From assembly GCA_963737265.1 (NCBI GenBank), contig CAVTRY010000011.1:96001-160000 (forward strand): a stretch of 64,000 nucleotides of DNA, given 5' to 3'. Of the stretch, positions 20,990 through 36,985 are shown piece after piece (position 1 is the first letter of the stretch; each line of letters starts with the position of its first letter). The DNA is from an uncultured delta proteobacterium. Its GTDB lineage: Bacteria > Myxococcota_A > Polyangia > Fen-1088. The notes under the pieces were generated by a model that worked only from the letters and a program-made list of their open reading frames with translations, made no database searches and had not been told where the DNA came from. A program made the position numbers and the translations under genes.

Positions 20990-21732
20990 GCACGCAGGGA
21001 AGCAAGCAACAAAGCAAGAATGTCGGCTTCACTATCGACGGCAAGGAAGTGCAGGGTGAGCAGGGGCAGACCATCCTGCAAGCCGCAGCACTAGCCAACA
21101 TCTACATTCCTCACCTGTGCGCGATGCGTGGACTCTCGCCCTGGGGAAGCTGCCGCGTGTGCACAGTGCTGGTGAATGGCCGGCCGCAGGCTGCCTGCAC
21201 CATGCCCATCAGCGAGGGCATGGTGGTGGAGAATGACACCCCGGATCTCAAAGACCTGCGCAGCAGCTTGGTCGAAATGCTTTTCGTCGAGGGCAACCAC
21301 TATTGCATGTTCTGCGAGAAGAGCGGCAATTGTGAATTGCAAGCCGTGGCCTACCGGTTGGGCATTCTTTCGCCACGGCATCCGTACATGTTCCCGGCGC
21401 GCGAAGTGGACGCAAGTCATCCCGATGTGATGTTGGATTACAACCGCTGCATTTTGTGCGCTCGCTGCATACGGGCATCCCGAGAATTGGATGACAAGCA
21501 CGTGTTCCAGTTCATCAAACGGGGGGCCCACAAGCGCGTCGGTGTCAATAGCGCCAATGGCGCTGTTGCAACCAACCTTGTCGTGGACGACAAGGCTGCG
21601 GAAGCATGTCCGGTTGGTTGCATCATCAAGAAGCGCGTGGGCTTTGCCGTGCCGATTGGCCAACGCCTCTACGACAAGAAACCCATTGGCAGCGAAATCG
21701 AAAGCGGACGCGCGGCCACCAGTTCGCGGTAG
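20986..21732 (+). CDS. hoxU: Diaphorase Fe-S subunit HoxU
   Basis: IPHLC…GSCRVC…AC, HYCMFCEKSGNC, RCILCARC, CPVG; GTGA overlap with hoxF. Confidence 0.92.
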   Translation: MSTQGSKQQSKNVGFTIDGKEVQGEQGQTILQAAALANIYIPHLCAMRGLSPWGSCRVCTVLVNGRPQAACTMPISEGMVVENDTPDLKDLRSSLVEMLFVEGNHYCMFCEKSGNCELQAVAYRLGILSPRHPYMFPAREVDASHPDVMLDYNRCILCARCIRASRELDDKHVFQFIKRGAHKRVGVNSANGAVATNLVVDDKAAEACPVGCIIKKRVGFAVPIGQRLYDKKPIGSEIESGRAATSSR

Positions 21733-21740
21733 GCGGGATC

Positions 21741-22289
21741 ATGGCAAACAAACCCAAGCTGGCGACAGTATCCTTGGCCGGGTGTTTCGGCTGTCACATG
21801 TCGATTCTCGACATTGACGAGCGGATTTTGAAGCTCATTGAATTGGTCGATTTCGATCGGTCGCCGATCGACGATATCAAGAAGATCGAAGGTCGCTGCA
21901 CGGTGGGAATCGTCGAGGGCGGCTGCTGCAACGAAGAGAACGTGCATGTCTTGCAACACTTTCGCGAGCATTGCGACGTGCTGATTTCAACCGGCGACTG
22001 CGCCATCATGGGTGGCATTCCGGCGCTGCGTAACACCATCCCGCTCAAGGAATGTCTGGACGAGGCCTACTTAAAGGGACCGACGGTTTACAATCCACGC
22101 GCGCGCCTGCCGAGCGATCCGGAAATTCCACTCTTGCTCGACCGGGTCTATCCGTGCCACGAAGTGGTCAAAATGGACTACCATTTGCCTGGTTGTCCGC
22201 CCTCGGCCGAGACCATCTGGCAGGCGCTGGTGGCGCTCCTTGGCGGAAAGCCGCTGGAGCTGTCCTACGAGCTTATCAAGTACGACTGA
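21741..22289 (+). CDS. hoxY: [NiFe]-hydrogenase small subunit HoxY
   Basis: LAGCFGCHMS, GDCAIMGG, PGCPP; short one-cluster small subunit. Confidence 0.93.
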   Translation: MANKPKLATVSLAGCFGCHMSILDIDERILKLIELVDFDRSPIDDIKKIEGRCTVGIVEGGCCNEENVHVLQHFREHCDVLISTGDCAIMGGIPALRNTIPLKECLDEAYLKGPTVYNPRARLPSDPEIPLLLDRVYPCHEVVKMDYHLPGCPPSAETIWQALVALLGGKPLELSYELIKYD

Positions 22290-22307
22290 GAGCGGAGAGG
22301 AGATCCG

Positions 22308-23741
22308 ATGAGCGTTGCCAAGCGAATCGTCATCGAACCCGTGACCCGCGTGGAAGGCCACGGAAAAGTCACCATATTGCTCGACGAGAATCAAAAGGTC
22401 GTGCAGGCCCGCCTGCATGTCGTGGAATTTCGCGGCTTCGAGCGTTTCATCCAGGGGCGTCCCTTCTGGGAAGTTCCGGTGCTGGTACAGCGTCTGTGCG
22501 GTATTTGTCCGGTCAGCCACCATTTGGCCGCCGCCAAGGCCATGGACCGCATCGTGGGCGGCGAGAACCTGACGCCGACGGCGGAGAAAATTCGCCGCCT
22601 CATGCACTACGGGCAAACCTACCAATCGCACGCGCTGCATTTCTTCCATCTGGCTTCGCCCGACCTGCTGTTTGGTTTTGGCTCGGACGTCGCCACCCGC
22701 AATGTTATCGGTGTGGCGGGCAAGCATCCGGAGCTGGCGCTGCAGGCCGTGATGATGCGCAAGTACGGCCAGGAGATCATCAAGGCCACGGCAGGCAAGA
22801 AGATCCACGGCACCGGCGCCATTCCCGGCGGGGTCAACAAGAACCTGTCCATTCCCGAGCGCGACGGGTTCCTCAAGGACGTCGAGCAGCAGCTGGCGTG
22901 GGCGAAGGCGGCGGTCAAGATCGCCAAGGACTACACGGTGCAAAACCTGGCCAGTCTGGCGCCCTTCGGATCCTTTGAATCCAACCATCTGTCGCTGGTG
23001 CGCGCCGACGGTGCGATGGATCTGTACCACGGCAACCTGCGCGCCATCGACGGGCAAGGGAATATCATTTTCGAACAGGTCGACTACCAAAAGTACGTCG
23101 AACTCATCGCGGAAGAAGTCCGCGATTGGTCGTACATGAAATTTCCATTCATTCGATCGGTCGGGCCGGAAAAGGGATGGTACCGGGTGGGACCGCTGGC
23201 ACGACTCAACACCGCCGGTTTCATCGATACGCCGCTGGCCGAGGCGGAACGTAAGGAGTTTCGCGCCGTCACCGCCAACAAGCCGAACAACATCACCATG
23301 GCCTATCACTGGGCGCGCATGGTCGAATTGCTGCACGCGATGGAGAAAATCCAGGCGCTCCTCGATGACAAGGATCTGCAAGGCACGAATCTGGTGGTCA
23401 AGGGCCAGCGGCGCGAGGTCGGCATCGGTCTTATCGAAGCGCCGCGCGGAACCTTGTTCCATCACTACAAGGTGGACAAGAACGACCAGGTCGTGTCAGC
23501 CAATCTTATCGTGTCGACCACTAACAACAATGAGCCCATGAACCGGGCGGTGGCCAAGGTGGCGCAGGACCATTTACAGGGCGTGGAGATCACCGAGGGC
23601 TTGCTCAATCACGTCGAGGTCGCCATTCGCGCCTACGATCCGTGCCTTTCGTGCGCGACGCACGCGCTCGGGCAAATGCCGTTGGAAGTGACCGTGGTCG
23701 ATCTCCAAGGCGAGATCCTTTCGCAGAAGAGCAGGGGATGA
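22308..23741 (+). CDS. hoxH: Group 3d [NiFe]-hydrogenase large subunit HoxH
   Basis: EPVTRVEGHG, L1 QRLCGICPVSH, EAPRGTLFH, L2 YDPCLSCATH followed by a cleavable C-terminal tail. Confidence 0.95.
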   Translation: MSVAKRIVIEPVTRVEGHGKVTILLDENQKVVQARLHVVEFRGFERFIQGRPFWEVPVLVQRLCGICPVSHHLAAAKAMDRIVGGENLTPTAEKIRRLMHYGQTYQSHALHFFHLASPDLLFGFGSDVATRNVIGVAGKHPELALQAVMMRKYGQEIIKATAGKKIHGTGAIPGGVNKNLSIPERDGFLKDVEQQLAWAKAAVKIAKDYTVQNLASLAPFGSFESNHLSLVRADGAMDLYHGNLRAIDGQGNIIFEQVDYQKYVELIAEEVRDWSYMKFPFIRSVGPEKGWYRVGPLARLNTAGFIDTPLAEAERKEFRAVTANKPNNITMAYHWARMVELLHAMEKIQALLDDKDLQGTNLVVKGQRREVGIGLIEAPRGTLFHHYKVDKNDQVVSANLIVSTTNNNEPMNRAVAKVAQDHLQGVEITEGLLNHVEVAIRAYDPCLSCATHALGQMPLEVTVVDLQGEILSQKSRG

Positions 23742-24271
23742 GTCGCGCGACCGACAGGGTGCTGGTTTATGGCTACGGCAATCCTGGCCGCCGTGACGAC
23801 GGCCTCGGACCAGCGTTCGCGTCCGCGGTGGAAGCCCTCGATTTGCCCGGGGTCGCGGTGGACGCCAACTATCAGCTCACTGTGGAGGACGCGGCTGACC
23901 TCGGTGGCTGTGCAGCGGTGGTGTTTGTCGACGCGGCCAAGCAAGGGCCAGAGCCATTCTGGTTTTCAGGTGTCGTCGATTCGGCCGTGACGAGCATCGG
24001 CTGGACCAGCCACAGCGTCACGGCGACCCAGGTCGTGGCGTTGGCGCGCGAGCTGTTTGCCAGCAAGGCCGCTGCCTATACGCTTGGCATCCGCGGATAT
24101 GAATTTGCCGATCTTGGCGAAGGGCTGTCGGCGCGAGCAAAAGACAACTTGGACAAGGCCGTGGAATTCGCCAAGACGGCGCTCGTCGATCGTCACTTCG
24201 ACCATTATGTGCGAGAATTTGCGTACCCGGCCGCGGGTTTCGTCGCCGGCGGCTCAACCTGGAAGGCGTAA
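23738..24271 (+). CDS. hoxW: Hydrogenase maturation endopeptidase (HoxW-like)
   Basis: GYGNPGRRDDGLG, VFVDA, TSH; ATGA overlap with hoxH. Confidence 0.88.
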   Translation: MSRATDRVLVYGYGNPGRRDDGLGPAFASAVEALDLPGVAVDANYQLTVEDAADLGGCAAVVFVDAAKQGPEPFWFSGVVDSAVTSIGWTSHSVTATQVVALARELFASKAAAYTLGIRGYEFADLGEGLSARAKDNLDKAVEFAKTALVDRHFDHYVREFAYPAAGFVAGGSTWKA

Positions 24272-24273: not shown

Positions 24274-24651
24274 ATGAGCGATGGAAAACACCTCATCCTT
24301 TGCGTCGATGACGACGCCGACCTTCTCGACCTTCTGCGCATGCAGCTTGAAAAGGGCGGCTATCGCGTGGAGTCGGCATTCTCGGCCGAAGAGGGCTTGG
24401 TCAAGTTCAAACAACTCCAGCCCGATCTCGTCATCCTCGATTTGATGATGGAAGAGATCGACGCCGGAACCAACCTGGTCAAGGAGCTCAAGCTGGCTGG
24501 CAATCGCGCGCCTGTGCTGCTGCTCAGCTCCATGGGCGATCAACTGAGCTTATCGACCGGCTATCGCGAGCTGGGTTTGGATGCCGTGTTTCAGAAGCCG
24601 GTGAACGCCGAGGCGCTGTTGCGTACGATCAAAGCCAAGCTCGCGCCTTAG
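24274..24651 (+). CDS. Single-domain response regulator (REC only)
   Basis: CVDDD, phosphoacceptor in ILDLMME, LLSS, QKPV; no output domain. Confidence 0.92.
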   Translation: MSDGKHLILCVDDDADLLDLLRMQLEKGGYRVESAFSAEEGLVKFKQLQPDLVILDLMMEEIDAGTNLVKELKLAGNRAPVLLLSSMGDQLSLSTGYRELGLDAVFQKPVNAEALLRTIKAKLAP

Positions 24652-24679: not shown

Positions 24680-26062
24680 ATGGAAGCAGTGGAAGGCCAT
24701 CCGTTGATTCTTTCGCACAGTCTGCTGCTGGGCGAGCGTCTGTACTTTTTCACGCGCCTGCGCTTTCTGGCCGCGCTCGGCATTCTGGTGGGAGCACCGT
24801 TTGCTACCTTCGTCGTCGGCATTCGGGGACTTGACCTCGCGGCGTTGACGGCTGCAGCGATTTTCCTGGCAACGTACAACGTCGCTATTTTCTTCGCTGT
24901 CCGACCTTTCCGCCGCCCCCAGGACGAGCCACGGATTTACCGCCGCTTGGTTGGAATTGCTCACCTCTCGATTCTCTTCGACTATTGGGTCCTGACGTAC
25001 GCCACCTGGTTGGTGGGCGGCTCGCAGTCGCCTTTCCTGGCCTTCTACCTTCTGCACGCAATTCTCGCCTGCGTGCTGCTATCGCGCCAAGCGGCCTATG
25101 TCCACGCGACCCTCGGGTACCTCCTGCTCGCCGGCCTGGTGCTTGGGGAATGGTTCGGCGTCCTCGCCAAGCACCGTCCCATCGGGGCGGTGCCCGGTGG
25201 CCCCGGGGCTGAGGTGCGCGTGGTCATGACCGTACTCTTTGTCTACGGTTTGTTGATGGCGGTAACCACCGTCCTGACGAGCGGAATCGTCCGTCTGCTG
25301 CGCGAAAGCGATCGCCGGCTGCGCGAGGCCGGCGATCGATTGGAACGCCTGGCGGACATGCGCCGCTCGTTTCTTCACGTCGTCTTGCACGATTTACGCA
25401 GCCCTGTCGGAACCGTGGTTGCCATGCTCGAAGGTTTGCACAGCGGCATCGATGGCCCTCTTGGCGAAGCACAGAAACATCGCGTGGGCAGGGCCGGCGA
25501 GCGATTGCGAGGCGTTCTTGATCTTCTGCGCGGGCTGCGCATTCTGGCCGATTTGGAGACGGAACGTCTGGACAGCATGATGGCTCCGGTGGATATGCTG
25601 GATCTGATTCGGGCCTTGGTGGAAGACCACCTTGATGCGGCCGAGCAGCGCGGGCACAGCTTGCGAACGGTTTTGCCGGCATCGCTGCCTCAGGTCCGCG
25701 GCGTCGATCGATTGATTCGCGAAGCCCTGGCCAACTACGTGTCCAACGCCATCAAATACACCGATCGGGGCGGTGCCATCACCGTTCGCGCGGAACAGGC
25801 AGGGCAGGGTGTGCGGGTTGAGGTAGCCGATAACGGGCCTGGTATCGCCGGCGAAGCGCAGAATCGCCTGTTCCAGGAATTCAATAAGGTGGGCAAGCCC
25901 GGATCGAGTTCCGGCGAAGCCGCTGGGATCGGGTTGGGTCTGTCCATCGTCCGACGCATCGCCGAGGCGCACGGCGGCAGCTTCGGCGTGGTCAGCCAGG
26001 CCGGCGAGGGCAGCATCTTCTTCTTCGAGCTGCCCGCCGTTGCCCCCGTGACGACCCGGTAG
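24680..26062 (+). CDS. Membrane-bound sensor histidine kinase
   Basis: About 5-6 TM helices, H-box VLHDLRSP, N-box NYVSNAIKY, DNGPGI, GIGLGL. Confidence 0.92.
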   Translation: MEAVEGHPLILSHSLLLGERLYFFTRLRFLAALGILVGAPFATFVVGIRGLDLAALTAAAIFLATYNVAIFFAVRPFRRPQDEPRIYRRLVGIAHLSILFDYWVLTYATWLVGGSQSPFLAFYLLHAILACVLLSRQAAYVHATLGYLLLAGLVLGEWFGVLAKHRPIGAVPGGPGAEVRVVMTVLFVYGLLMAVTTVLTSGIVRLLRESDRRLREAGDRLERLADMRRSFLHVVLHDLRSPVGTVVAMLEGLHSGIDGPLGEAQKHRVGRAGERLRGVLDLLRGLRILADLETERLDSMMAPVDMLDLIRALVEDHLDAAEQRGHSLRTVLPASLPQVRGVDRLIREALANYVSNAIKYTDRGGAITVRAEQAGQGVRVEVADNGPGIAGEAQNRLFQEFNKVGKPGSSSGEAAGIGLGLSIVRRIAEAHGGSFGVVSQAGEGSIFFFELPAVAPVTTR

Positions 26063-26263: not shown

Positions 26264-26329
26264 TTGACTTGCCTTCGATGCACCGGTAAATAGATCGTTA
26301 CAGAATTCACAGCGTGACTTCATGCACGG
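26264..26329 (+). promoter_or_regulatory. Putative sigma70 promoter followed by two tandem Rex-like operators
   Basis: TTGACT-N17-TAAATA (26264-26292); TCGTTACAGAATTCACAG (26295-26312, 10 of 14 consensus positions of TTGTGAAnnnnTTCACAA) and GCGTGACTTCATGCACGG (26312-26329, 8 of 14) directly upstream of rex. Confidence 0.5.
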
Positions 26330-26347: not shown

Positions 26348-27037
26348 ATGAACAAGCAAAAAATCCCAAGCCGATGTGTAGAGCGCCTCAGTATCTACAG
26401 GCGTGCCTTGCTTCAGGATCGCTGTGCTTCTGGCCCAAGCATTTTTTCGCACCAGCTGGCGTTTGCCTGCCGGCTGACTGCGGCCCAGGTGCGGCGAGAC
26501 TTGATGCTTATCGGGTACAGCGGGAGTCCGACCACCGGTTACGAGGTCAAGCGCCTGCTTTCGTCCATCGGCACCTTGATCGATCCGCCCGAGATACGCG
26601 AGGTGGCCATTGTTGGCATGGGACACCTCGGGCGCGCCATCGCGGCCTACTTGGCCAATCGTCTGCCGAAGATTCGCCTTGCCGCGGGCTTCGATGTCAA
26701 CCCAGACAAGATCGGCGCCACGTTCAGTGGCGTGCGCTGCCATTCGGTTCAGAAACTGGCCGAGGTAGTGGCCGAAAGGAAGATCGGCCTCGGTATCCTG
26801 ACCGTACCCGCCGAGCACGCGCAGGCCGCGGCCGAGCAGTTGGTCCACGCTGGCGTCACCGGCATTCTCAACTTCGCCCCGGTGTGCCTGCACATTCCAA
26901 GTCGCGTCTCCGTCGAGAGCATCGACATGACGGTGGCTTTGGAAAAGGTGGCCTTTTTCGCCTGCGGCAGTTCTAGAAGAAAAGGAACAATCGATGACCA
27001 CAGCAGCACGAGCAACATCGACCAAACCGCTCCTTAA
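26348..27037 (+). CDS. rex: Redox-sensing transcriptional repressor Rex
   Basis: IPSRCVERLSIYRRAL, AAQVRRDL, GYEV, VGMGHLGRA, AGFDVNPDKIG, GILNFAP. Confidence 0.93.
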   Translation: MNKQKIPSRCVERLSIYRRALLQDRCASGPSIFSHQLAFACRLTAAQVRRDLMLIGYSGSPTTGYEVKRLLSSIGTLIDPPEIREVAIVGMGHLGRAIAAYLANRLPKIRLAAGFDVNPDKIGATFSGVRCHSVQKLAEVVAERKIGLGILTVPAEHAQAAAEQLVHAGVTGILNFAPVCLHIPSRVSVESIDMTVALEKVAFFACGSSRRKGTIDDHSSTSNIDQTAP

Positions 27038-27488
27038 GGAGTTTGGCGAGGCCAAGCGAGACAGTCTGATCCCGATCCTTCAGAAAGCCCAAGAGGTTCA
27101 TGGCTACCTATCGGAAGAGGCCATCGCCGAGATAGGGCGCCACCTCAAGCTTCCCGCGAGCAAGGTCTACGGCGTCGCGACCTTCTACAATCAGTTTCGC
27201 TTCACGCCCAAGGGCAAGTACCACATCATGTTGTGCCGCGGGACCGCCTGCCACGTGAAGGGCTCGCTCAAGCTGCTCGACGCGGTCACGCGTACGCTGA
27301 AATTGCAAGCCGGCCAGACCACCCGCGACGGGCTGTTCAGCCTGGAGGTCGTGGCGTGCATGGGTGCCTGCGGTTTGGCGCCGGCCATGAGCATCAACGG
27401 CGAGATGCACGCCAAGGTCACCCCCAAGAAGGTCGCTAAGCTTCTCGAAGAGTGCCGCGCCAAGGAGCAGGTCCATGCCCACGCCTGA
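26994..27488 (+). CDS. hydC: [FeFe]-hydrogenase [2Fe-2S] subunit (HydC/NuoE-like)
   Basis: LIPILQKAQEVHGYL, VATFYNQF, CRGTAC, ACMGACGLAP. Confidence 0.9.
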   Translation: MTTAARATSTKPLLKEFGEAKRDSLIPILQKAQEVHGYLSEEAIAEIGRHLKLPASKVYGVATFYNQFRFTPKGKYHIMLCRGTACHVKGSLKLLDAVTRTLKLQAGQTTRDGLFSLEVVACMGACGLAPAMSINGEMHAKVTPKKVAKLLEECRAKEQVHAHA

Positions 27489-30400
27489 GACATCTACCAA
27501 GACAACCTGTTGGACCGCGCCCTCGCAGCCAACCGCCGAGCTTTTGGCTAAGTTGCCGGTCGGTCCGCTTTCCGCGAACGCCGGCCCCAATATCGGCGAG
27601 CGCATCACCCTGCTTCGTCGCGACGAGGTGCGCAAGCCGACCATTTTGATTGGCACGGGCACCTGCGGTCTCGGCGCTGGCGCGGCCAAGACCATGGAAG
27701 CGGCGAAAGCCTACGTCGCCAAACGCATGATCGATGCGGAGGTCGTCGAGGTTGGCTGCCTCGGCATGTGCTCGGAAGAACCTATGCTCGATGTGCAGCT
27801 GCCGGGCAAGGCGCGCATCAGCTTCTGCCGAGTTACCGCCGACAAAGTTGGCGGGGTGCTCGACGCCGCCTTGGCTGGCAAGTTGCCCCAAGACGGAGTG
27901 CTCGGCCAATTCCGCGGCGCTGCCGGCGAGCCCTGGGCCAAGGTGCCCTTCCTCGACCAACACCCATTTTTCGCCCCGCAGCTGCGCTGGGTGCTTGCCA
28001 ACTCGGGCATCATCGATCCCGGCAGCATCGACGAATACATCGCGCGCGGCGGCTACAGCTCGCTGGAAAATACCCTGCGCACGAAAAAGCCCGACGAGGT
28101 TTGCGACATCGTGGCCAAGGGCGGCCTGCGCGGCCGTGGCGGCGGCGGGTTCCCCACCGGGATGAAGTGGAAGTTCGCGCGCGAGGCTCCCGGCGACCAC
28201 AAATACCTCATTTGCAACGCGGACGAGGGCGATCCCGGAGCCTTCATGGATCGCGCGGTGGCGGAAAGTGATCCCTATCGTTTGCTCGAAGGCATGGTGA
28301 TCGCGGCCTATGCCATCGGCGCCAGCAAGGCGTACATCTACATTCGCGCCGAGTACCCGCTCGCCATCGAGCGTCTGCGCGTGGCCATTCCCAAGGCCAC
28401 GGAATACGGACTACTCGGCAAGAACATCCTGGGCAGCGGTTTCGACTTGGAAATCGTGCTCAAACTTGGCGCCGGTGCCTTCGTGTGCGGTGAAGAAACC
28501 GCGCTTATGCAAAGCATCGAGGGCAAGCGCGGAATGCCACGGCCGCGACCGCCTTTCCCGGCCGTCAAGGGCCTGTTCGGCATGCCTACGGTCATCAACA
28601 ACGTCGAGACGCTGGCCTGCGTGTCCACGCTGATGGAGATGGGCGGCGATGCATTCGCCGCGGTTGGCACAGCTAAGAGCAAGGGCACCAAGGTGTTCGC
28701 GCTTTCGGGCATGGTCAGCCGCACCGGCCTCGTCGAAGTGCCCATGGGCACCACCATCCGCAAGATCGTGTTCGACGTAGGCGGTGGCAATCCCTCGGGC
28801 AAGAAATGCAAGGCGGTTCAGATCGGCGGTCCATCGGGCGGCTGCATCCCTGAACCGAAGATGGACATCATCGTCGACTACGATGCCATCAAGGAACTGG
28901 GCGCCATCATGGGCTCGGGCGGCTTGGTCGTGCTCGACGAAACCACCTGCATGGTCGACTTGGCCAAGTTCTTCATGGAGTTCATCCAGAACGAGAGCTG
29001 CGGCAAGTGCATCCCGTGCCGCGAAGGCACCAAGCGCATGCTGGAGATCTTGCAAGCCATCACCCGGCCGCGCCGGCGTGAAAACGGCAACGATGCTCTG
29101 CTGCGTTTTCAGGGCGTCATGCAGCTCAAGCAACTGGCCGAAACCATCCGCATCAGCTCGCTGTGTGGCCTCGGCCAGACCGCGCCCAATCCGGTGCTCA
29201 GCACCATGCGCTGGTTCCGCGACGAGTACGAAGCGCACATCTTCGATCGCGCTTGTCCGGCGGGCACCTGCAAGGATCTCGTCGGGGCGCCTTGTCAGAC
29301 TGGCTGTCCGGTGGGCACCGAAGTGTGGCGCTACGTCGCGCACCTTGGACGCGGCGAAACCGAGCTGGCCTATCAAGCCATCCGCGAGGCCAACCCGTTT
29401 CCGTCGGTATGCGCCCGCGTGTGCAGCCATCCCTGCGAGGATGTCTGCCGCTGCGGCGCCACGGGCGGCGAACCCATCGCGGTGCGCGCGCTCAAGCGCT
29501 ACGTGGTGGATCACGTCGATCCGTCCGCGTACCGGGTGACTCTCAAGGGCGCCACCCCCAAGTCGAAGAAGGTGGCGGTCATTGGCGCCGGACCCTCGGG
29601 CCTTACGGCGGCACACTACCTGTCGCTCAAGGGACACAAGGTCACGGTGTTCGAGAAGGAGAACGAGCCGGGCGGCATGCTTTTCAACGGCATTCCGGCC
29701 TATCGGCTGCCGCGCGACGTGGTTCGCAAGGAGATCGCGTCGCTGCTCAACGACAACATCGAGCTCAAGTGCAATATCGCCTTGGGCAAGGACGTCACGG
29801 TCGACGGTCTCTTGGCGAGCGGGTTCGACGCGGTCTACGTCTCGATCGGCGCGTACAAGAGTCAGCGTCTCGGCATCGACGGCGAGCATGTGGCCGGCGT
29901 GATTCCTGGCATGGCCTTCCTCAAGGCCAACAACTTGCGCGGCGAAACCTTGGCGCAAGGCAAGGTGGGCATCATTGGCGGTGGTAACACCGCCATGGAT
30001 GCCGCCCGCGTGGCGCTGCGCCAACCCGGGGTCGACAAGGTCACCATCCTCTACCGGCGGACGCGCGACGAAATGCCCGCCTTCGAGGAGGAGGTCCACG
30101 CCGCCCTCGAGGAGGGCATCGAGATCAAGGAGTTGGCAACTCCTGTCGCGGTGCTGTCGGAGAATGGCAAGCTCACCGGCGTGCGCCTGCTCCGCAACGA
30201 GCTCGGCGACCAGGATTCGAGCGGCCGGCGCAAACCGGTGCCGGTCAAGGGCAGCGAATTCGACGTCGCGCTCGATACGTTGATCGTGGCCATCAGCGAA
30301 CAGCCAGAGGCCGAGTCCTTCCAAGGTCTGCGCACCACCAAGTGGGGCACCATCGAGACCAACTCCGAGTCGACCGCGGCCGGCCGGCCCGGTGTATTCA

Positions 30401-30729
30401 GTGGCGGCGATGTGGCACGCGGCCCGTCGGGAGTCATCGAGGCTATCGCCGACGGCAAACGGGCCGCGCTGATGGTGGATCGCTATCTCACCGGGCGGCA
30501 GATGAAGATGATCAAGAAGGTGAAGCTACCTTCGATCTACATCGAGCCTGTGGAGGTTGACGACGACGAGGGCGAGACCATCGTGGAACGGGCCGTCGAG
30601 GACAAGGTATCGCCAGCGAAGCGGCGCAAGAGCTTCGTCGAGGTGGAAACGGGTCTGTCGCTGCAGGCGGCGACGGATGAAGCAAAAAGGTGCCTGCGCT
30701 GTGACCTGGATTTTACCCGACCCCTTTGA
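27475..30729 (+). CDS. hydB: HydB/NuoF-like FMN/NADH subunit fused to a GltD/NfnB-like FAD/NADPH domain (1084 aa)
   Basis: Trx-like domain (TCGLGAG, GCLGMCSEEP); NuoF motifs GRGGGGFPTG, ADEGDPGAFMD, GGPSGG, ESCGKCIPC; then PCQTGCP, VCARVCSHPCEDVC, GAGPSG, GIPAYRLP, GGGNTAMDAAR, YRRT, GGDVARG, EAKRCLRC. Confidence 0.9.
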   Translation: MPTPETSTKTTCWTAPSQPTAELLAKLPVGPLSANAGPNIGERITLLRRDEVRKPTILIGTGTCGLGAGAAKTMEAAKAYVAKRMIDAEVVEVGCLGMCSEEPMLDVQLPGKARISFCRVTADKVGGVLDAALAGKLPQDGVLGQFRGAAGEPWAKVPFLDQHPFFAPQLRWVLANSGIIDPGSIDEYIARGGYSSLENTLRTKKPDEVCDIVAKGGLRGRGGGGFPTGMKWKFAREAPGDHKYLICNADEGDPGAFMDRAVAESDPYRLLEGMVIAAYAIGASKAYIYIRAEYPLAIERLRVAIPKATEYGLLGKNILGSGFDLEIVLKLGAGAFVCGEETALMQSIEGKRGMPRPRPPFPAVKGLFGMPTVINNVETLACVSTLMEMGGDAFAAVGTAKSKGTKVFALSGMVSRTGLVEVPMGTTIRKIVFDVGGGNPSGKKCKAVQIGGPSGGCIPEPKMDIIVDYDAIKELGAIMGSGGLVVLDETTCMVDLAKFFMEFIQNESCGKCIPCREGTKRMLEILQAITRPRRRENGNDALLRFQGVMQLKQLAETIRISSLCGLGQTAPNPVLSTMRWFRDEYEAHIFDRACPAGTCKDLVGAPCQTGCPVGTEVWRYVAHLGRGETELAYQAIREANPFPSVCARVCSHPCEDVCRCGATGGEPIAVRALKRYVVDHVDPSAYRVTLKGATPKSKKVAVIGAGPSGLTAAHYLSLKGHKVTVFEKENEPGGMLFNGIPAYRLPRDVVRKEIASLLNDNIELKCNIALGKDVTVDGLLASGFDAVYVSIGAYKSQRLGIDGEHVAGVIPGMAFLKANNLRGETLAQGKVGIIGGGNTAMDAARVALRQPGVDKVTILYRRTRDEMPAFEEEVHAALEEGIEIKELATPVAVLSENGKLTGVRLLRNELGDQDSSGRRKPVPVKGSEFDVALDTLIVAISEQPEAESFQGLRTTKWGTIETNSESTAAGRPGVFSGGDVARGPSGVIEAIADGKRAALMVDRYLTGRQMKMIKKVKLPSIYIEPVEVDDDEGETIVERAVEDKVSPAKRRKSFVEVETGLSLQAATDEAKRCLRCDLDFTRPL

Positions 30730-30757: not shown

Positions 30758-32479
30758 ATGCTGACCATCGAGATCAACGGAAAGAAGCTGGAAGCCGCCA
30801 AGGGCGAGACCATCCTCACGGTCGCGCGCCGCAACGGCATTGAAGTGCCGACCCTGTGCCACATGGAAGGGCTCATGCCGAGCGGCGCCTGCCGCATGTG
30901 CGTAGTCGACGTGGAGGGCTCTGCCAATCTCCTCACGGCGTGCTCGTACCCCGTCGTAGAGGGAATGAAGGTGCGCACGCATTCGCCGCGCGCGCTTGAA
31001 ACCCGCCGCACCATCGTGCAACTACTGCTCGCCAATCACCCGGACGACTGCCTCTACTGCTCGCGCAGCTCGAACTGCGACCTGCAGGCGCTGGCGCGCG
31101 ATCTTGGCATCAGCCGGCGCGAGTACCACGGCTTCAAGAGCAAGCAAATCCTGGACGTCTCGGGACCGTCGCTGGTGCGCGATCCCGAAAAGTGCATCCT
31201 GTGCGGCAAGTGCGTGCGGGTGTGTGAAGATATCCAAGGCGTGTCGGCCATCGACTTCGTCGGCCGCGGCAGCAAGACCGTTATTGGGACCGCGTTCTCG
31301 CGCGGGCTCGCCACCTCAAGCTGCATCAACTGCGGCCAGTGCGTGGTGGTTTGCCCGACTGGCGCGCTCGTCGAACGCTCCTACGTGCCCGAGGTGCTGT
31401 CCGCCCTGCGCGACCCGGACAAGTACCTGGTGGTGCAGCACGCGCCGGCGGTTTCGGTCACGCTGGCCGAGGAATTCGGCGTCGGGCCGGGCAGCGACTG
31501 CGACGGCCAAATGGTGGCCGCGCTTCGCCGCGCCGGCTTCAAGCGCGTGTTCGACACCAGCTTCAGCGCCGACCTCACCATCATGGAAGAGGCGTCCGAG
31601 CTGGTGCAGCGGATTCAGACGGGTGGCAAACTGCCGATGTTCACCAGCTGCTCGCCCGGCTGGATCAAATTCATCGAGGAGTTCTACCCGGACATGCTCG
31701 GACACGTCTCGACGTGCAAGAGCCCGCAGCAGATGTTGGGCGCGGTCATCAAGAGCTACTTCGCCGAACGCGAAGGAATCGACCCGGCCAAGATAGTCAG
31801 CGTGTCCATCATGCCGTGCACGGCCAAGAAGTACGAAGCTGGCCGACCCGAGATGGCGCAAAACTACGTTCCCGACGTGGACTACGTACTTACCACGCGC
31901 GAGGCTGCCCAGCTTTTGCGCATGAGCGGTGTGGGCATGCTTGGCATCGAGCCGGAAATGGCGGACACACCCTTCGGCGAGCGGTCTACGGCAGGCAAAA
32001 TCTTCGGCGCTTCCGGTGGCGTCATGGAGGCCGCCGTTCGCACCGCGCACTGGATGATCACGGGCAAGGAACTGCCCGGACTCGACGTTCAGCCGCTGCG
32101 TGGTTTAGGCGGTGCCAAAGAACTAAAGGCCAACATCGGTGGCATCGAGGTGGGGGCGGCCGTGGTCAGCGGGCTCGCCAATGCCCGCGTGCTCATCGAG
32201 CAGATTCGTGCCGGCCGCAAGGATCTTCACTTCATCGAAGTCATGACCTGTCCTGGTGGTTGCATCAACGGCGGCGGACAACCCCTACATTCAAACAAGG
32301 ACGCGGTCCTGGCGCGCATGAAGAAGCTGTACAACCTGGACCAGAACGGCAGCCTACGCGTCAGCCACGACAACAAGTCAGTCAAACGCCTGTACGAAGA
32401 ATTTCTCGGCGCGCCCCTCGGCGAAAAGAGCCACCATCTTCTGCACACGTATTACGTTGAGAGAGAGGTCTTGGTGTAA
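30758..32479 (+). CDS. hydA: Group A (A3-like) [FeFe]-hydrogenase catalytic subunit HydA
   Basis: Accessory [2Fe-2S], His-ligated and 2x[4Fe-4S] clusters; H-cluster motifs FTSCSPGW, MPCTAKKYE, EVMTCPGGCINGGGQP; IFGASGGVMEAAVRT; C-terminal SHHLLHTYY. Confidence 0.96.
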   Translation: MLTIEINGKKLEAAKGETILTVARRNGIEVPTLCHMEGLMPSGACRMCVVDVEGSANLLTACSYPVVEGMKVRTHSPRALETRRTIVQLLLANHPDDCLYCSRSSNCDLQALARDLGISRREYHGFKSKQILDVSGPSLVRDPEKCILCGKCVRVCEDIQGVSAIDFVGRGSKTVIGTAFSRGLATSSCINCGQCVVVCPTGALVERSYVPEVLSALRDPDKYLVVQHAPAVSVTLAEEFGVGPGSDCDGQMVAALRRAGFKRVFDTSFSADLTIMEEASELVQRIQTGGKLPMFTSCSPGWIKFIEEFYPDMLGHVSTCKSPQQMLGAVIKSYFAEREGIDPAKIVSVSIMPCTAKKYEAGRPEMAQNYVPDVDYVLTTREAAQLLRMSGVGMLGIEPEMADTPFGERSTAGKIFGASGGVMEAAVRTAHWMITGKELPGLDVQPLRGLGGAKELKANIGGIEVGAAVVSGLANARVLIEQIRAGRKDLHFIEVMTCPGGCINGGGQPLHSNKDAVLARMKKLYNLDQNGSLRVSHDNKSVKRLYEEFLGAPLGEKSHHLLHTYYVEREVLV

Positions 32480-32481
32480 CT

Positions 32482-32901
32482 ATGAACGAAGCAAAGACAA
32501 TTCTCGTTGTTGACGACGACCTCGACATCCTGGAACAGTACAGCCTGCTGCTGAAGGCGGACGGCTACAACGTCGTGCAAGCCAGCACCATGGCCGAGGC
32601 GGAAGAAACCATCCTCACGGTGCGCCCGGATCTGGCCATTCTGGATTTGATGATGGATGAAAGGGACGCCGGCTTCGTGCTGTGCAACCAGTTCAAGCGC
32701 ATGTATGCCGGCTTGCCCATCATCATCGTGTCGAACGTTACGCCCATCACGGGGCTCGACTTTCGGCCGCGCAGCCCGGAGGAACATTCGTGGGTGCGGG
32801 CGGATGCGATGCTGAACAAGCCCATTGTCGCCGAGCGCCTGCTCAACGAGGTGCGCCGGCTACTCAACCAGGGCCAGTCCGTCGTCGCCGCCGCACACTA
32901 G
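32482..32901 (+). CDS. Single-domain response regulator (REC only)
   Basis: VVDDD, ILDLMMDERDAG, NKPI; no output domain. Confidence 0.9.
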   Translation: MNEAKTILVVDDDLDILEQYSLLLKADGYNVVQASTMAEAEETILTVRPDLAILDLMMDERDAGFVLCNQFKRMYAGLPIIIVSNVTPITGLDFRPRSPEEHSWVRADAMLNKPIVAERLLNEVRRLLNQGQSVVAAAH

Positions 32902-32959
32902 CGTTCGGGGAGCGCGCGGTAGCTGACGTAGTGGGTGGTACAGCAGCCGGCATGCCAAG

Positions 32960-35029
32960 ATGGGAGTCTCCATGACCATCGCGCGGCCGAGATGCTTTAC
33001 CAAGACCGTGAAGGATCGCTGCCACGTCTGCTACACCTGCGTGCGTGGTTGTCCGGCCAAGGCCATCCGCATCCTGGATCGCCAGGCCGAGATCGTCGAG
33101 GATCGCTGTATCGGCTGCGGCAACTGCGTGCGGGTGTGCGGACGCGGCGCGAAGACTGTGGTCAACACCATTCCCGAGGTCGAGGCGCTGCTGGCCAGCC
33201 AGCCGCGCGTGGCGGCACTAGTCGCCCCCAGTTTTCCCGCGGAATTCCACGATCTGCTTGGGCACAAAGACGGGGACGTGTTGGTCGGGACGTTGGTCGG
33301 GATGTTGCGCAAGCTTGGCTTCGCTCTCGTCACCGAGGTCGGCTTCGGCGCCGACTTGGTCGCGCGGGGCTACCGAGAATTGCTCCACACCCGCGCGCCG
33401 GGACAACGCTATGTCGCCACCACCTGTCCTGCCGTGGTCGGCTATGTAGAGCGCTATTGGCCGGGGCTGGTCGACAATCTTGCGCCCATCGTCTCACCCA
33501 TGGTGGCCATGGCGAGAGTGTTGCGCGAAATCCACGGTCACGACCTGCGCACGGTTTTCATCGGTCCGTGCTTGGCCAAGAAAGTCGAAGCCAGCATGAG
33601 CGAGCTTGAAGGCGAAGTGGACGCGGTCATTACCTTCGCCGAGCTACGCACGATGTTCCTGTCCCACGGTATCGAGGCAGCCGCGGTCCCTCCGAGCGAC
33701 TTCGATCCGCCTCATCCCGGTACCGGCACGCTGTTCCCGCTTAACCGAGGATTGTTCCAGGCCGCGGGTATTAGCGAGGATCTGTCGACGACCGATGTGG
33801 TTGCCGCTCATGGCGGAACGTCGGCGTTTGTGACCGCTATCGAGGAATTCGCGAGTGGCGACCTTGACGCCGGTTTGGTCGAAATGCTGTGTTGCAATGG
33901 TTGTGTTTCGGGGCCAGGCATGACCGCGCACGAAAAGCCATTTCGCCGTCGGGCACGCGTGGCCACCTACGCCAACGATTCCAAGCGCAGGCGCGACGAG
34001 GACGAGTGGAAGCGGCAGATGACTCGATTCGCCGAGATCGACCTGTCGCGAACCTTTCACGCCTTCGACCAGCGGACAGCGACACCGTCCGAGGAAGAAA
34101 TTCGCACCATCTTGCGTGGCATGGGCAAGGAAGAACCAGCCGACGAGCTTGACTGCAAGGCGTGCGGGTACGCCACCTGCCGCGAACATGCGGTCGCCAT
34201 CTACCGCGGGTTGGCGGAAAGCCAGATGTGTCTGCCCTACGTCATCGATCAGTTCGACCATACGGTCAGGCAGTTGTCCGAATCGAACCAGCAACTCGAA
34301 AGCACGCAAGAACAGCTCATGCATTCCGAGCGCCTGGCCAGCATGGGCCAACTTGCCGCGGGCGTGGCCCATGAGCTCAACAATCCCCTTGGCGTGGTGT
34401 TACTCTACGCCCACCTGCTGCGCGATGAAGCCGGCGAGTCGTCGAACATGCGCAAAGAGCTGACCCTCATTAGTGATCAGGCCACGCGCTGCAAACGTAT
34501 CGTTTCCGATCTGCTCGATTTTGCGCGCGAGAACAAACTGCTTCTGGAGCCAATTGGCGTCGAAGAGCTAATCAAAAGAAGCCTGGCGGGCCTTCTCGTG
34601 CCACCGTCGATCAAGACCGTTTTCGAGTTTGGTCACGCGCATCCAGAATGCGAGGTCGATCCGGCCCAAATGATCCAAGTCCTCACCAACCTCTACAGCA
34701 ATGCCTTCGCGGCCATGTCCGACGAAGGGACGCTCACCATCGCAACCCACGAGGAAGGGGAGCGATTGGTGATCAGCGTGGCCGACACGGGCACCGGAAT
34801 CACCCCCGAGAACATGAAACACATCTTTCAGCCGTTCTTCACCACCAAGCAGATCGGCAAGGGCACCGGCCTCGGCCTGGCCGTGGTGTACGGCATCGTG
34901 AAGATGCATCGGGGCGACATCAGCATCGAATCCAACGCCGATCCCACCCGCGGTCCGACCTGGACGCGCTTCAAGGTGTCGTTCCCGCACAACCCGGCGA
35001 TGAACAATGCCGAGGCGAGACTGGGCTGA
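32960..35029 (+). CDS. Sensory (group C, histidine-kinase-linked) [FeFe]-hydrogenase fused to HisKA/HATPase
   Basis: 2x[4Fe-4S] (CHVCYTCVRGCP, CIGCGNCVRVC); H-domain APSF, ATTCPAVV, GPCLAKKVE, EMLCCNGCVSGPG; extra Fe-S domain DCKACGYATC…MCLP; H-box AHELNNP, DTGTGI, FFTTK…GTGLGL. Confidence 0.9.
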   Translation: MGVSMTIARPRCFTKTVKDRCHVCYTCVRGCPAKAIRILDRQAEIVEDRCIGCGNCVRVCGRGAKTVVNTIPEVEALLASQPRVAALVAPSFPAEFHDLLGHKDGDVLVGTLVGMLRKLGFALVTEVGFGADLVARGYRELLHTRAPGQRYVATTCPAVVGYVERYWPGLVDNLAPIVSPMVAMARVLREIHGHDLRTVFIGPCLAKKVEASMSELEGEVDAVITFAELRTMFLSHGIEAAAVPPSDFDPPHPGTGTLFPLNRGLFQAAGISEDLSTTDVVAAHGGTSAFVTAIEEFASGDLDAGLVEMLCCNGCVSGPGMTAHEKPFRRRARVATYANDSKRRRDEDEWKRQMTRFAEIDLSRTFHAFDQRTATPSEEEIRTILRGMGKEEPADELDCKACGYATCREHAVAIYRGLAESQMCLPYVIDQFDHTVRQLSESNQQLESTQEQLMHSERLASMGQLAAGVAHELNNPLGVVLLYAHLLRDEAGESSNMRKELTLISDQATRCKRIVSDLLDFARENKLLLEPIGVEELIKRSLAGLLVPPSIKTVFEFGHAHPECEVDPAQMIQVLTNLYSNAFAAMSDEGTLTIATHEEGERLVISVADTGTGITPENMKHIFQPFFTTKQIGKGTGLGLAVVYGIVKMHRGDISIESNADPTRGPTWTRFKVSFPHNPAMNNAEARLG

Positions 35030-36174
35030 TGGGCGAGCGGCTGCGCATCCTCGTCACCGACGATGAAGAAGGAATTCGTTTGGGCGTGGCGCGCGTACTT
35101 GAGAAGTTCGTCGCGAGCTTTCCCGACATTGATGCCGAGATCGCCTACGACATCGAGACCGCGGCCAGCGGCGAGGACGCGGTCGAGCGTCTGCGCGACG
35201 CGCCACCCGACATCCTGCTTCTCGATCTGAAACTGCCCGGCATGGGTGGGCTCGATGTCCTACGCGAAGCCCGCGCCCTCGATCCGCCGGTGCTCACCGT
35301 TATGATCACCGCCTTCGCCTCGGTGACTACCGCGGTCGAGGCCACGCGGGGTGGAACCTTCGATTTTCTGCCCAAGCCGTTCACGCCGAACGAAATCCGC
35401 GGCGTCGTCCGCCGCGCCACGCGCGACCTCGTCCTCAGCCGCCAGGCTCGGAAATTGGCGACCGAGCAACGTCGCACGCGTTTTGAAATCATCAGCGTGC
35501 TCGCGCATGAGCTGAAGGCGCCGCTCGGCGTGGTCGAAGGATACTTGGCGTCAATTCTCGATGGCGTGGTTTCCGACGAGGCCACGTTGCGCCGGGTGGT
35601 CAGCCGCTCGATTGCCAGAATTCAAGGTATGCGCCAGCTCATCTTCGATTTGCTCGACGTGACCCGGCTAGAAGCCGGGATGAAGGCGCGGGTGTTGGAG
35701 CCGGTGCAGCTGGCTGAAGTCGCGCGCGAGTGCATGGATGCGTTGCGAACGCAGGCTGAAGCCAAGAAGGTGTCGATGGAGCTGGGCGGCGCTGCCGACG
35801 TCGAGCTGGTCGCGGTCCGGGGCGAGGTGGAGATCGTGCTCAACAACCTGCTGACCAACGCCATCAAGTACAACCGCGAAGGCGGCAGCGTGCGCGTCGA
35901 CTTGAATCGACACGACGATCACGTCGAGATCGCCGTGCGCGACACCGGCATCGGTCTTTCGCACGAAGAGGCGGGCAAGGTGTTCAATGATTTCGTGCGC
36001 ATCAAGAACAGCAAGACGCGCGGGATCGAAGGATCGGGGCTAGGATTGGCCACGGTCAAGCGCATCGCGGGCATGTATCATGGCGTGGCCACGGTAAGCT
36101 CGGAGCCGGACCAAGGAAGCACCTTCATCGTTACCCTCAAGGCCGCAGCGCCAGAAAAGATCGCGCAACCATGA
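35029..36174 (+). CDS. Hybrid REC-histidine kinase
   Basis: ILVTDDE, LLDLKLPG, PKPF, then AHELKAP, NLLTNAIKY, DTGIG, GSGLGL; TGATG overlap with the sensory hydrogenase. Confidence 0.92.
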   Translation: MGERLRILVTDDEEGIRLGVARVLEKFVASFPDIDAEIAYDIETAASGEDAVERLRDAPPDILLLDLKLPGMGGLDVLREARALDPPVLTVMITAFASVTTAVEATRGGTFDFLPKPFTPNEIRGVVRRATRDLVLSRQARKLATEQRRTRFEIISVLAHELKAPLGVVEGYLASILDGVVSDEATLRRVVSRSIARIQGMRQLIFDLLDVTRLEAGMKARVLEPVQLAEVARECMDALRTQAEAKKVSMELGGAADVELVAVRGEVEIVLNNLLTNAIKYNREGGSVRVDLNRHDDHVEIAVRDTGIGLSHEEAGKVFNDFVRIKNSKTRGIEGSGLGLATVKRIAGMYHGVATVSSEPDQGSTFIVTLKAAAPEKIAQP

Positions 36175-36434
36175 AAGATCACCGCATCGTTGGAATTCAC
36201 GTCACCGATCGCGCCACCCACGCGGGCGAGGTGCAACAGATCCTGAGCAAATACGCAAAGAACATCCGCACCCGTCTCGGTCTGCACGAGACGAACGAAG
36301 ACGCCGCATCGCCGAATGGCCTCATCCTCATCGAGGCCGTCGGCAGCAACAAAGAGATTGACGAGCTTTCTGACGAGCTGCGCCGCCTGAAAGGCGTCCA
36401 GGTGCAGAGCATGTTCTTTTCCCATCCCGAATAG
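36171..36434 (+). CDS. Small ACT/NikR-C-like protein related to the TM1266 iron-only hydrogenase system regulator family
   Basis: IVGIHVTDR…VQQILSKY…IRTRLGLHE…GLILIE…LKGVQVQSM; ATGA-coupled at the end of an [FeFe] operon. Confidence 0.75.
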   Translation: MKDHRIVGIHVTDRATHAGEVQQILSKYAKNIRTRLGLHETNEDAASPNGLILIEAVGSNKEIDELSDELRRLKGVQVQSMFFSHPE

Positions 36435-36445: not shown

Positions 36446-36985
36446 TTAGAAGAGAAGGATCGCGCCTTCCTTGAGGGCCGACTCGGTTTCGTCGGATCGA
36501 CTTTCCGCGAGCCGGAAGTTAGGCTTGACGTCAAGTTCGAGCCAGCATTCGAGGACCATGCCGTCGACGGCAAATAGGATCGGAGACCAAGCGGCCTGAC
36601 AGATGGACGCAAGGTCCAGTAGCTCGGCCAGTGCGCTCAACGGCACGCCGAATTTCACCCTCGCTCCATACGCCGCCAACCGGTTGCGAAAGCGCCCGAC
36701 AGCTTGATTGACCATCTCGCACGCCCAGTCGTCCAGGTCGCGCGGAATCGCACTCGGTTGCAAGGGATGAAGTCGAGAAAACAACTCACTCGGCGCCGCG
36801 AGAGTGAGCGAGCCCCGTACTTCCTCGTTGCCGAACGAGGAGAATGCGGCGGTGCCATCACCGATGGGTCGCGGCGGGCGTGACCCCGTAAGCCTCACGG
36901 CCTGGACTCCCAAGTCGCTGAGCATCTCCGCCGCGCAGTCCGAGAATATCTCAGCCAGTCGCGTTTCGCTGGACTCGACGGGCAT
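36446..36985 (-). CDS. CheX/CheC-like phosphatase domain protein
   Basis: F-G…RGSLTL; DWACEMVNQAVGRFRNRL (ExxN motif); GVP. Confidence 0.65.
   Translation of the reverse strand: MPVESSETRLAEIFSDCAAEMLSDLGVQAVRLTGSRPPRPIGDGTAAFSSFGNEEVRGSLTLAAPSELFSRLHPLQPSAIPRDLDDWACEMVNQAVGRFRNRLAAYGARVKFGVPLSALAELLDLASICQAAWSPILFAVDGMVLECWLELDVKPNFRLAESRSDETESALKEGAILLF

Follow-up and report, generated by a model that had tools for sequence, protein, structure and literature searches.

A putative H2-sensing [FeFe]-hydrogenase–histidine kinase fusion, the kinase cascade predicted around it and a possible link to Rex in an uncultured delta proteobacterium

A sensory role for the group C and D [FeFe]-hydrogenases is still termed putative (PMC8924675), and no biochemistry on kinase-fused members was found in the literature. 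The closest known relatives of the protein described here are the HydDB C3 fusions of Caldithrix abyssi (WP_006928132.1, 670 aa) and Ignavibacterium album (WP_014559402.1, 659 aa). A kinase fusion of this kind has also been reported as BfuT, sub-type V (PMC11406978), in a paper whose main text mentions neither response regulators nor Rex. TmHydS (M2f, with PAS) and TamHydS (M2e, or group D) share with our protein the N-terminal 2x[4Fe-4S] region, the loss of C299, a small residue at M353 and the C-terminal Cx2Cx4Cx16C motif, but their chains include no catalytic output domain. H2 fails to reduce the C-terminal cluster of TamHydS, and the 2026 study of this protein closes with the statement that interaction partners must be found (PMC13104023).

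Three other systems resemble parts of the locus, the first two in features that are predicted here. In HoxBC-HoxJ-HoxA of Cupriavidus a slow hydrogenase steers a histidine kinase governing hydrogenase genes; however, the hydrogenase is of the [NiFe] type, sensor and kinase are separate, and one transfer step leads to a DNA-binding regulator. In LvrA-LvrB-LvrC of Leptospira an upstream kinase acts on a Rec-DHp-CA kinase, LvrB, in which receiver phosphorylation switches on the second kinase, which then phosphorylates another receiver; LvrC carries an anti-sigma output domain, whereas in our locus the final receiver has nothing attached and a hydrogenase domain provides the input. In Caldicellulosiruptor, Rex is an established regulator of a bifurcating [FeFe]-hydrogenase (PMC8579813); as in such regulons, a rex gene and an operator-like site stand before hydCBA here.

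The window, that is, the whole 64,000-nt stretch of contig CAVTRY010000011.1 that was analysed, contains the features listed in Table 1; genes are referred to by their first position. The best PDB matches of HydA are HydABC complexes. The extension of HydB corresponds to sub-type I BfuB (PMC11406978), unlike the sub-type V loci that encode BfuT. No hydE, hydF or hydG was present among the window proteins scanned. Of 27 related loci, a sample from the best 80 of 608 stretches in a genome scan, 12 have maturase genes no more than 10 kb away. The TM1266-like gene recurs in two of these loci, both times adjoining hydG; nothing on the function of TM1266 was found among the papers listed. Scans for sigma70 promoters and terminators gave no excess over shuffled sequences.

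Table 1. Features of the window around the sensory hydrogenase gene
Feature	Position	Strand	Basis or remark
HoxFUYHW NAD-linked [NiFe]-hydrogenase operon (context)	19154..24271	+	domain/family search
Second single-domain receiver (D56), family of 32482, after hoxW	24274..24651	+	34% identical to 32482
Membrane histidine kinase, five hydrophobic segments	24680..26062	+	domain search, sequence comparison
Palindrome resembling a Rex operator, 53 nt ahead of rex	26295..26312	.	matrix scan
Rex, NADH/NAD+-sensing repressor, first gene of run	26348..27037	+	NF003995, 201.7 bits (cut-off 126)
HydC (NuoE-like)	26994..27488	+	domain/family search
HydB (NuoF-like) with C-terminal DPD_II/FAD extension	27475..30729	+	architecture of sub-type I BfuB
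HydA, catalytic subunit, trimeric NAD-linked [FeFe]-hydrogenase	30758..32479	+	NF040763, 817 bits (cut-off 765)
Single-domain receiver (D55, K113), family tied to hydrogenase operons	32482..32901	+	domain search, family profile
Putative sensory [FeFe]-hydrogenase–histidine kinase fusion	32972..35029	+	Pfam, motifs, structure model; alternative start 32960
Soluble histidine kinase under Rec control: REC (D66), helix, HisKA (H160) and HATPase	35029..36174	+	overlaps sensor stop codon
TM1266-like/CPF_0552-family small protein, last gene of run	36171..36434	+	PF21699, NF052672 above cut-off

The sensor consists of a 2x[4Fe-4S] region, an H-domain, a Cx2Cx4Cx16C cluster, a signalling helix, an NtrB-type HisKA domain (H471) and a HATPase domain. 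Residues are numbered from the ATG at 32960, which yields 689 aa; the ATG at 32972, with GGAG upstream, yields 685 aa, matching the length of the relatives. Pfam searches identified Fer4 (residues 18–64), Fe_hyd_lg_C (84–319; 7e-48), FeS PF04060 (397–426) and intact HisKA (462–524) and HATPase_c (567–677) domains, and no PAS match was obtained. A first-pass annotation had described a single chain with ferredoxin, H-cluster, extra Fe-S and HisKA/HATPase domains, in which a PAS-less group C H-domain is wired directly to the kinase; domains and motifs agree with this description, and the ORF positions proved correct. The layout is not due to chance, since the arrangement from cluster to His is identical in all 120 relatives listed.

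The motifs of the sensor read ATTC156P, GPC204LAK207KVE210, EMLCC312NGC315, C399x2C402x4C407x16C424 and H471ELNNP. Alignment to TSCCP, MPC and EVMACxGGC of group A bore out the substitutions noticed earlier (proton-transfer Cys lost, GPC for MPC, EMLCC for EVMAC): Thr replaces the proton-transfer Cys, Gly replaces M353 and Leu replaces M497. The third motif is CxGC, one residue short, with two rather than three residues between C312 and C315; each of these two cysteines is kept in 119 of the 120 close relatives listed, and C311 in 83. All four H-cluster cysteines (C156, C204, C312 and C315) are present, T155 stands where C299 is absent, and G202 is the small residue at M353. Together with the N-terminal 2x[4Fe-4S] region and the C-terminal Cx2Cx4Cx16C motif, both group C features (PMC8163306), this points to a putative sensory group C [FeFe]-hydrogenase; such a protein would bind a complete H-cluster and activate H2. 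In a structure model of the sensor (pLDDT 90.6), the H-domain superposes on CbA5H and CpI (Z 41 and 39; rmsd 2.8–2.9 Å; about 355 residues); the sequence and fold matches listed included no solved group C/D structure.

One might object that the module has ceased to work as a hydrogenase: it could carry [4Fe-4S] clusters only, or bind [2Fe] but not turn over, and respond to the redox state of ferredoxin, to O2 damage or to maturase output instead of H2. One residue is deleted directly ahead of the bridging Cys in 48 of the 51 rows that bear a kinase, and K207 is replaced in 12 of 50; both would fit such a loss, and the frequent linkage to maturase genes suits a maturation sensor equally well. 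However, the pocket persists in distant relatives: the four cysteines are found in 48 of 50 kinase-bearing proteins, E210 in 48 and K207 in 38 (Arg instead in six), and the APS, SP and KKxE motifs are conserved. The modelled fold superposes on active enzymes, and TmHydS and TamHydS are active despite similar substitutions. The TamHydS and T. neapolitana HydS rows, unlike the sensor, keep the canonical CxxxC instead of CxGC (TmHydS itself is not in the table compared), so that H-cluster binding is not transferable from them. On balance we consider the loss of hydrogenase function improbable. In other proteins this short-motif module is joined to different outputs, namely sigma54-AAA-HTH, GGDEF, MCP and HisKA_3.

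Compared by eye with the printed HydDB rows, the sensor matches the C3 entries described as 'fusion with histidine kinase': H-domain and histidine kinase share one chain of about 660–690 aa, and ATTCP, GPC and ExxCCxGC are the motifs of the Caldithrix row. Length, C-terminal cluster, single-chain kinase fusion and the place downstream of hydA are common to C3/BfuT proteins and the sensor, but here a small receiver precedes the sensor gene, an order found in none of the 27 related loci. The label originally attached to the protein, C1 (histidine kinase-linked), had to be abandoned. The C1 rows, judged from 14 of 73 (12 plus two more, all alike), are stand-alone hydrogenases of 435–462 aa with two subunits, a separate kinase gene and a canonical third motif, and none of the five kinase fusions in HydDB is filed as C1 (three are under C2 and two under C3). 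Nor is C1 known from genomes alone: the C1 row of T. mathranii carries the Ser/Leu substitutions described for TamHydS, which has been characterised, and by our own identification probably is that protein. The M2f (TmHydS) type was also rejected, since no PAS match was obtained and the stretch between the last Cys and the His, 47 residues in length, is modelled as a single helix; 'PAS domain' in HydDB is a blanket label, since it is printed for every group C row examined, even those of 435 aa. In a tree of H-domains, those of histidine-kinase fusions cluster together (SH-aLRT 86) and adjoin the PAS-type ones; a FastTree phylogeny of 121 H-domains came with long-branch warnings. Caldithrix is absent from the 79 loci returned by the genome scan. 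The sensor is thus of a known type, catalogued since 2016, and the locus is therefore not unique; the cascade around it was not found described.

One helix is predicted from just past C424 to residue 490, running through H471. The spacing from last Cys to His is 47 residues in all 120 close relatives listed and 33, 40, 47, 54 or 68 residues in 42 of the 49 distant relatives with spacings under 80 aa, so that the linker appears to change in length mostly by heptads. Against this, only four of the ten distinct linker lengths keep the register, and the proteins share a common descent.

The TGATG overlap and the ORFs confirm that, as first noted, the sensor lies between a REC-only protein and a translationally coupled REC-kinase hybrid; an ATGA overlap joins the latter to the TM1266-like gene. 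The receiver-kinase has the Rec-DHp-CA layout of LvrB, with D66, K116, H160 and the N, G1 and G2 boxes intact, and its Lys-to-His distance is 44 in 21 of 26 PAS-less members. The system had been called a phosphorelay. However, no Hpt match was obtained among the 55 window proteins scanned, and a classical His-Asp-HPt-Asp relay was rejected because the HPt between the receivers is missing from this set; this and the Rec-DHp-CA hybrid argue for an LvrB-like kinase cascade.

The receiver-kinase occurs in 25 of the 27 related loci, both misses ending at a contig edge, and the distinct family of small single-domain receivers in 24; in four loci the receiver-kinase directly follows a sensor that has no small receiver at that place. 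Among 44 held-out kinases with the same H-box and no H-domain, an NtrC-type (hybrid-like) receiver is next in 35, a small-family receiver in none, and nine are followed by no receiver. Loci L032, L034, L039 and L054 have the same triad next to group 4 [NiFe] genes, but with a Cache-domain kinase instead of the hydrogenase sensor. Receiver 24274 scores 120 bits on the small-receiver profile, being itself in the training set. The kinase core of 24680 is closest to that of the receiver-kinase, and this membrane kinase is likely a second input to the single-domain receivers.

We propose a kinase cascade of two tiers that signals H2, or strictly speaking the H-cluster's redox state, to the hydrogenase operon, a reading to which we give slightly less than an even chance. 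The H-domain would bind an H-cluster with slow turnover, and a shape change may then pass via the C-terminal Fe-S domain into the coiled-coil helix that leads directly into the phospho-His, switching the autokinase or phosphatase activity of the sensor in a direction that is not predictable. We infer in this way that H2 controls the kinase activity of the sensor. The idea that the signal is an electron passed to the C-terminal cluster was dropped: a simple electron wire is unlikely, as the TamHydS cluster is not reduced by H2 (PMC13104023). To judge from the kinase class and the retention of the gene, H471 would phosphorylate D66 of the receiver-kinase and free the kinase of the latter, as in LvrB; H160 would then phosphorylate the single-domain receiver or receivers, which 24680 may feed too. 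These four steps taken jointly seem to us somewhat more probable than not.

No HTH was detected by domain search in 24274, 32482 or 35029, in agreement with the first-pass annotation, which had concluded that the system has no DNA-binding output. This conclusion is not supported: Rex heads the same gene run, an operator-like palindrome precedes the operon, and in other proteins a receiver of this family is joined to Rex. With a matrix trained on nine other loci, the palindrome ranks first of 63,983 window positions (15.1 bits vs 7.9 for the next), and the operator also ranks first in the held-out locus L003; the plain Rex consensus with up to three mismatches has no match in the window, the site at 26295 having four. 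The rex gene is found in 10 of the 27 loci, all within the sub-clade of the sensor. In the other 17, most of which retain the small receiver, the DNA fetched contains no rex, and none of the Cache-kinase loci has it.

Of 35 proteins over 290 aa retrieved with the receiver family, 34 are Rex with a C-terminal receiver. On the small-receiver profile, 29 Rex-fused receivers score 108–135 bits, tandem receivers of another kind 79–109 and hybrid receivers 20–61. The fusions have two separate origins in a Rex tree, and their receivers form a clade of their own, apart from that of 32482 (joining branch 87% SH-aLRT). In a monomer model of a fusion both domains fold (pTM 0.52), with a linker predicted to be disordered; its atlas look-alikes are only receiver clusters, with scores under 0.9. 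Against a receiver–Rex contact it counts that neighbours may become fused although their products never touch. A complex prediction for a Rex dimer with receiver 32482 gave no answer (score 0.00) and speaks neither for nor against. Neither a phosphorylation input to Rex nor Rex–receiver fusions were found in print.

Action of the receiver on Rex is the most likely final step and the least supported one, and we put it forward tentatively. Transcription of rex-hydCBA and the sensor genes would then be set by both NADH/NAD+ and H2. Alternatively, the small receiver of the same cascade could act post-translationally, as first suggested for this locus, on an enzyme (HydABC, Hox, group 4 hydrogenase or maturases) or be a phosphate sink, with Rex controlling the operon on its own. 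Small receivers do adjoin the structural genes of hydrogenases of several types, mostly with no rex close by, and the family conserves M58, G64, F65, P79 and F94 beyond the phosphorylation site, as expected for a binding surface. However, the neighbouring hydrogenases have no single subunit in common, no fusion to a hydrogenase subunit appears among 120 longer proteins listed (the search being weak for long proteins), and the fusions found are to Rex and, once, to an AsnC-type HTH; we hold this alternative to be unlikely. It is quite improbable that the real output lies in a sigma54 enhancer-binding protein whose gene is located elsewhere and which the NtrB-type sensor phosphorylates, with hybrid and small receivers as feedback or branch elements. 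HoxBC-HoxJ-HoxA does end in such a protein (PMC10073562), locus L001 has a divergent REC-AAA protein, and 5 of the 19 loci examined (L001, L013, L016, L019 and L023, none with rex) have a −24/−12-like motif ahead of hydC. However, this motif was sought with relaxed settings and with no shuffle control, four of these five loci fall in a different sub-clade, and no such motif precedes rex or hoxF in the window.

The complete reading, doubtful as it still is, would have an H2-sensing [FeFe] kinase cascade control Rex through a bare receiver, as a two-input (H2, NADH) switch on bifurcating hydrogenase genes; the Rex–receiver fusions would be a one-chain, phosphorylation-controlled Rex, and the CxGC clade would have an uncharacterised H-cluster geometry. 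A soluble chain with a built-in kinase and its likely substrates next door offers a direct read-out for signalling by sensory [FeFe]-hydrogenases, and specific tests can start from what is added here: a cascade that is conserved, a linker stepped in heptads, a third motif one residue short and the link to Rex. Should Rex prove to be the target, a single promoter could be where anaerobes of at least seven phyla balance H2 pressure against NADH.

As the first-pass annotation proposed, the sensor joins ferredoxin, H-domain, extra Fe-S and HisKA/HATPase modules; the ferredoxin part holds two clusters, and the extra Fe-S module is of the Cx2Cx4Cx16C form. A Pfam search of its ORF gave no PAS hit, in agreement with its description as PAS-less. 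Alignment of the H-domain motifs likewise bore out the three claimed substitutions, TTCP for SCCP, GPC for MPC and EMLCC for EVMAC (CpI reference positions C299, M353 and M497; PMC8163306). The sensor gene, whose nearest named relatives come from Polyangia, is third from the end of the run rex-hydC-hydB-hydA-receiver-sensor-receiver kinase-TM1266-like, upstream of which lie hyp genes, hoxFUYHW and the genes of the second small receiver and of a membrane kinase. Judging by those relatives, the DNA probably comes from an anaerobic myxobacterium. HydB carries a DPD_II/FAD extension (sub-type I-like), beside a sub-type V-like sensor; this form occurs in just 3 of the 27 related loci among the matches listed. 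Motif 1 of HydA is TSCSP, as in A. woodii 7q4v. Convergent with the operon end is a CheX-like protein (weak Pfam match, below cut-off); CheX proteins are receiver phosphatases. The sigma54 activator without a receiver domain heads flagellar genes, and nothing observed connects it with the cascade.

Coordinates of the features discussed (sensor residues numbered from 32960)
Feature	Source	Position	Strand	Phosphorylation residues
Sigma54 activator	window	9632-10810	-	
Second small receiver	window	24274-24651		D56
Rex palindrome	window	26295-26312		
Same-strand gene run	window	26348-36434		
HydB-HydA region	window	27475-32479		
Small receiver	window	32482-32901		D55
Sensor	window	32960/32972-35029	+	H471
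Receiver-kinase	window	35029-36174	+	D66, H160
CheX-like protein	window	36449-36985	-	
Run from rex to hydG-F-E	L003	9200-16877		
Small receiver with insertion	L004	5130-5648		
Second group C gene	L006	3357-5249		
Second group C gene	L030	1763-3697		
Split sensor gene	L011	2668-4656		
Split sensor gene	L012	3819-5859		
Cache-sensor set	L027	1109-4609		

The sensor belongs to an already catalogued type, and the C1 label given to it earlier is wrong, since kinase fusions are recorded in the HydDB supplement and in PMC11406978. The former (PMC5037454) lists five, three in C2 and two in C3; the C3 pair are a 670-aa protein of Caldithrix abyssi and a 659-aa one of Ignavibacterium album. All three motifs of the C. 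abyssi protein are those of our sensor. All 14 C1 rows compared, of 73, are stand-alone proteins with the kinase on a separate gene. PMC11406978 names the kinase-bearing C3 protein BfuT of sub-type V and places its gene downstream of the catalytic one; the lineages concerned are Hydrogenedentota, Calditrichota and Bacteroidota. A term search of the paper's main text found neither 'response regulator' nor 'Rex', and two of three term matches in its supplement held nothing relevant to either. No description of the cascade, of the short motif, of the periodic linker or of the fusions between Rex and a receiver, all set out below, turned up in the open-access papers searched.

Comparison with 119 of 150 distant representatives (those covering the H-domain) suggests, together with a structure model (pLDDT 90.6; superposition Z 41 on CbA5H and 39 on CpI), that the sensor is likely to bind an H-cluster. 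All four cluster cysteines are complete in 48 of the 50 kinase-bearing relatives, and E210 and K207, the counterparts of E361 and K358 in CpI numbering, are kept in 48 and 38. A third motif shortened by one residue, CxGC in place of CxGGC, is present in 48/51 kinase-bearing rows (query included) and 35/69 others; a clade of 31 proteins, mostly of 555–600 aa and several with PAS, retains the long form. The row that we identify as TamHydS, on the basis of the Ser and Leu substitutions it shows, and that of T. neapolitana HydS carry the long motif, whereas our sensor has the short one, and support for binding is therefore not transferable from characterised enzymes. TmHydS became no more active when its Cys was put back (PMC10055695), so 'low activity' is a property of the clade and not the effect of one residue.

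In the predicted model, a single helix begins just past the final Cys of the cluster and continues through the phospho-His. The distance between the two is 47 residues in 120/120 close relatives, and 42 of the 49 distant relatives with a distance below 80 have 33, 40, 47, 54 or 68. Sixteen of the 23 at a distance other than 47 are in heptad register (nominal p 3e-9, the sequences being related), although by distinct linker lengths only 4/10 are. Such a helix with heptad-stepped linkers characterises a phase-sensitive signalling coiled coil, which the sensor linker looks like. A scan of 40 of the 119 proteins showed the short-motif module fused also to sigma54 activators, GGDEF, MCP and HisKA_3 domains; it therefore behaves as a portable input. 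Since H2 leaves the C-terminal cluster of TamHydS unreduced (PMC13104023), a conformational signal is favoured.

The best 80 of 608 stretches in the genome scan yielded 79 loci, 27 with the full sensor fusion; these, among the matches listed, span at least seven named phyla. They contain hydA in 23 (immediately upstream of the sensor in 20), the receiver-kinase in 25, the small receiver in 24, a maturase gene in 12 and rex in 10. The commonest order is sensor-small receiver-receiver kinase (21/27), followed by sensor-receiver kinase (4/27); the remaining two loci run out at a contig edge. The sensor H-box is NtrB-like, and held-out kinases of this class are followed by an NtrC-type, hybrid-like receiver in 35/44 cases and by the small-receiver family in 0/44. 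The sensor would thus phosphorylate D66 of the receiver-kinase, whose H160 would then phosphorylate the small receivers. The first-pass annotation proposed a phosphorelay. The 55 window proteins scanned gave no HPt hit, and the hybrid is arranged as Rec-DHp-CA, like LvrB, a kinase turned on by phosphorylation of its receiver (PMC13269768); this points to a kinase cascade.

A triad in which a Cache sensor replaces the hydrogenase sensor adjoins group 4 [NiFe] genes; such sets (L027, L032, L034, L039, L041, L054, L060, L077) lie beside [NiFe] hydrogenase or Fe-S/CCG-domain genes. Residues 27–37 of the receiver-kinase form a conserved 11-residue insertion past receiver helix 1, common to PAS-less members and absent from PAS-containing ones (L013–L016, L019, L020, L022, L023). 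In the Bacteroidota loci L004, L007, L025 and L027 the gene that comes first, before hydC, encodes a small receiver with ∼35 inserted residues; in L004 it is preceded by Rex boxes. The second group C genes of L006 and L030 share the sensor's H-domain clade, lack the kinase and are divergent with a SpoIIE phosphatase gene. Two sensor genes are split close to the 5' end, through frameshift or assembly error.

With a matrix from nine other loci (training sites chosen by match to a consensus; window and L003 held out), the palindrome ahead of rex ranks first of 63,983 window positions (15.1 bits versus 7.9 for the next), and the two best sites in L003 both precede rex. The L003 run comprises rex, sensor, receiver-kinase and hydG-F-E with two Rex boxes; neither catalytic hydrogenase nor small receiver lies within 10 kb of it. 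All ten rex-bearing loci among the matches listed lie in the sub-clade of the window sensor. Searching longer proteins with the small-receiver profile revealed a Rex fusion, and a search with the latter gave 34 Rex proteins with a C-terminal receiver among the matches listed (P0299, P0391–P0422, P0457), those with a named source coming from Acidobacteria, Latescibacterota, Oligoflexia and Betaproteobacteria. The 31 compared are 32–92% identical, and 28 have the phospho-Asp motif and Lys; the receiver is decayed in P0419–P0422. The Rex tree puts their Rex parts at two separate positions, each adjoining a Rex from a hydrogenase locus. Fusions of the small-receiver family to an AsnC-type HTH protein and a PF00682 domain (P0326, P0312) also occur. 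Action of the small receiver on Rex is rather doubtful, because the fused receivers make up a clade of their own, sister to that of receiver 32482 on a weakly supported common branch, 17/27 loci among the matches listed show no rex in the DNA covered, and five have a sigma54-like promoter in its place; even so, Rex is the best named target. The Rex proteins with a C-terminal receiver constitute a family that merits separate study.
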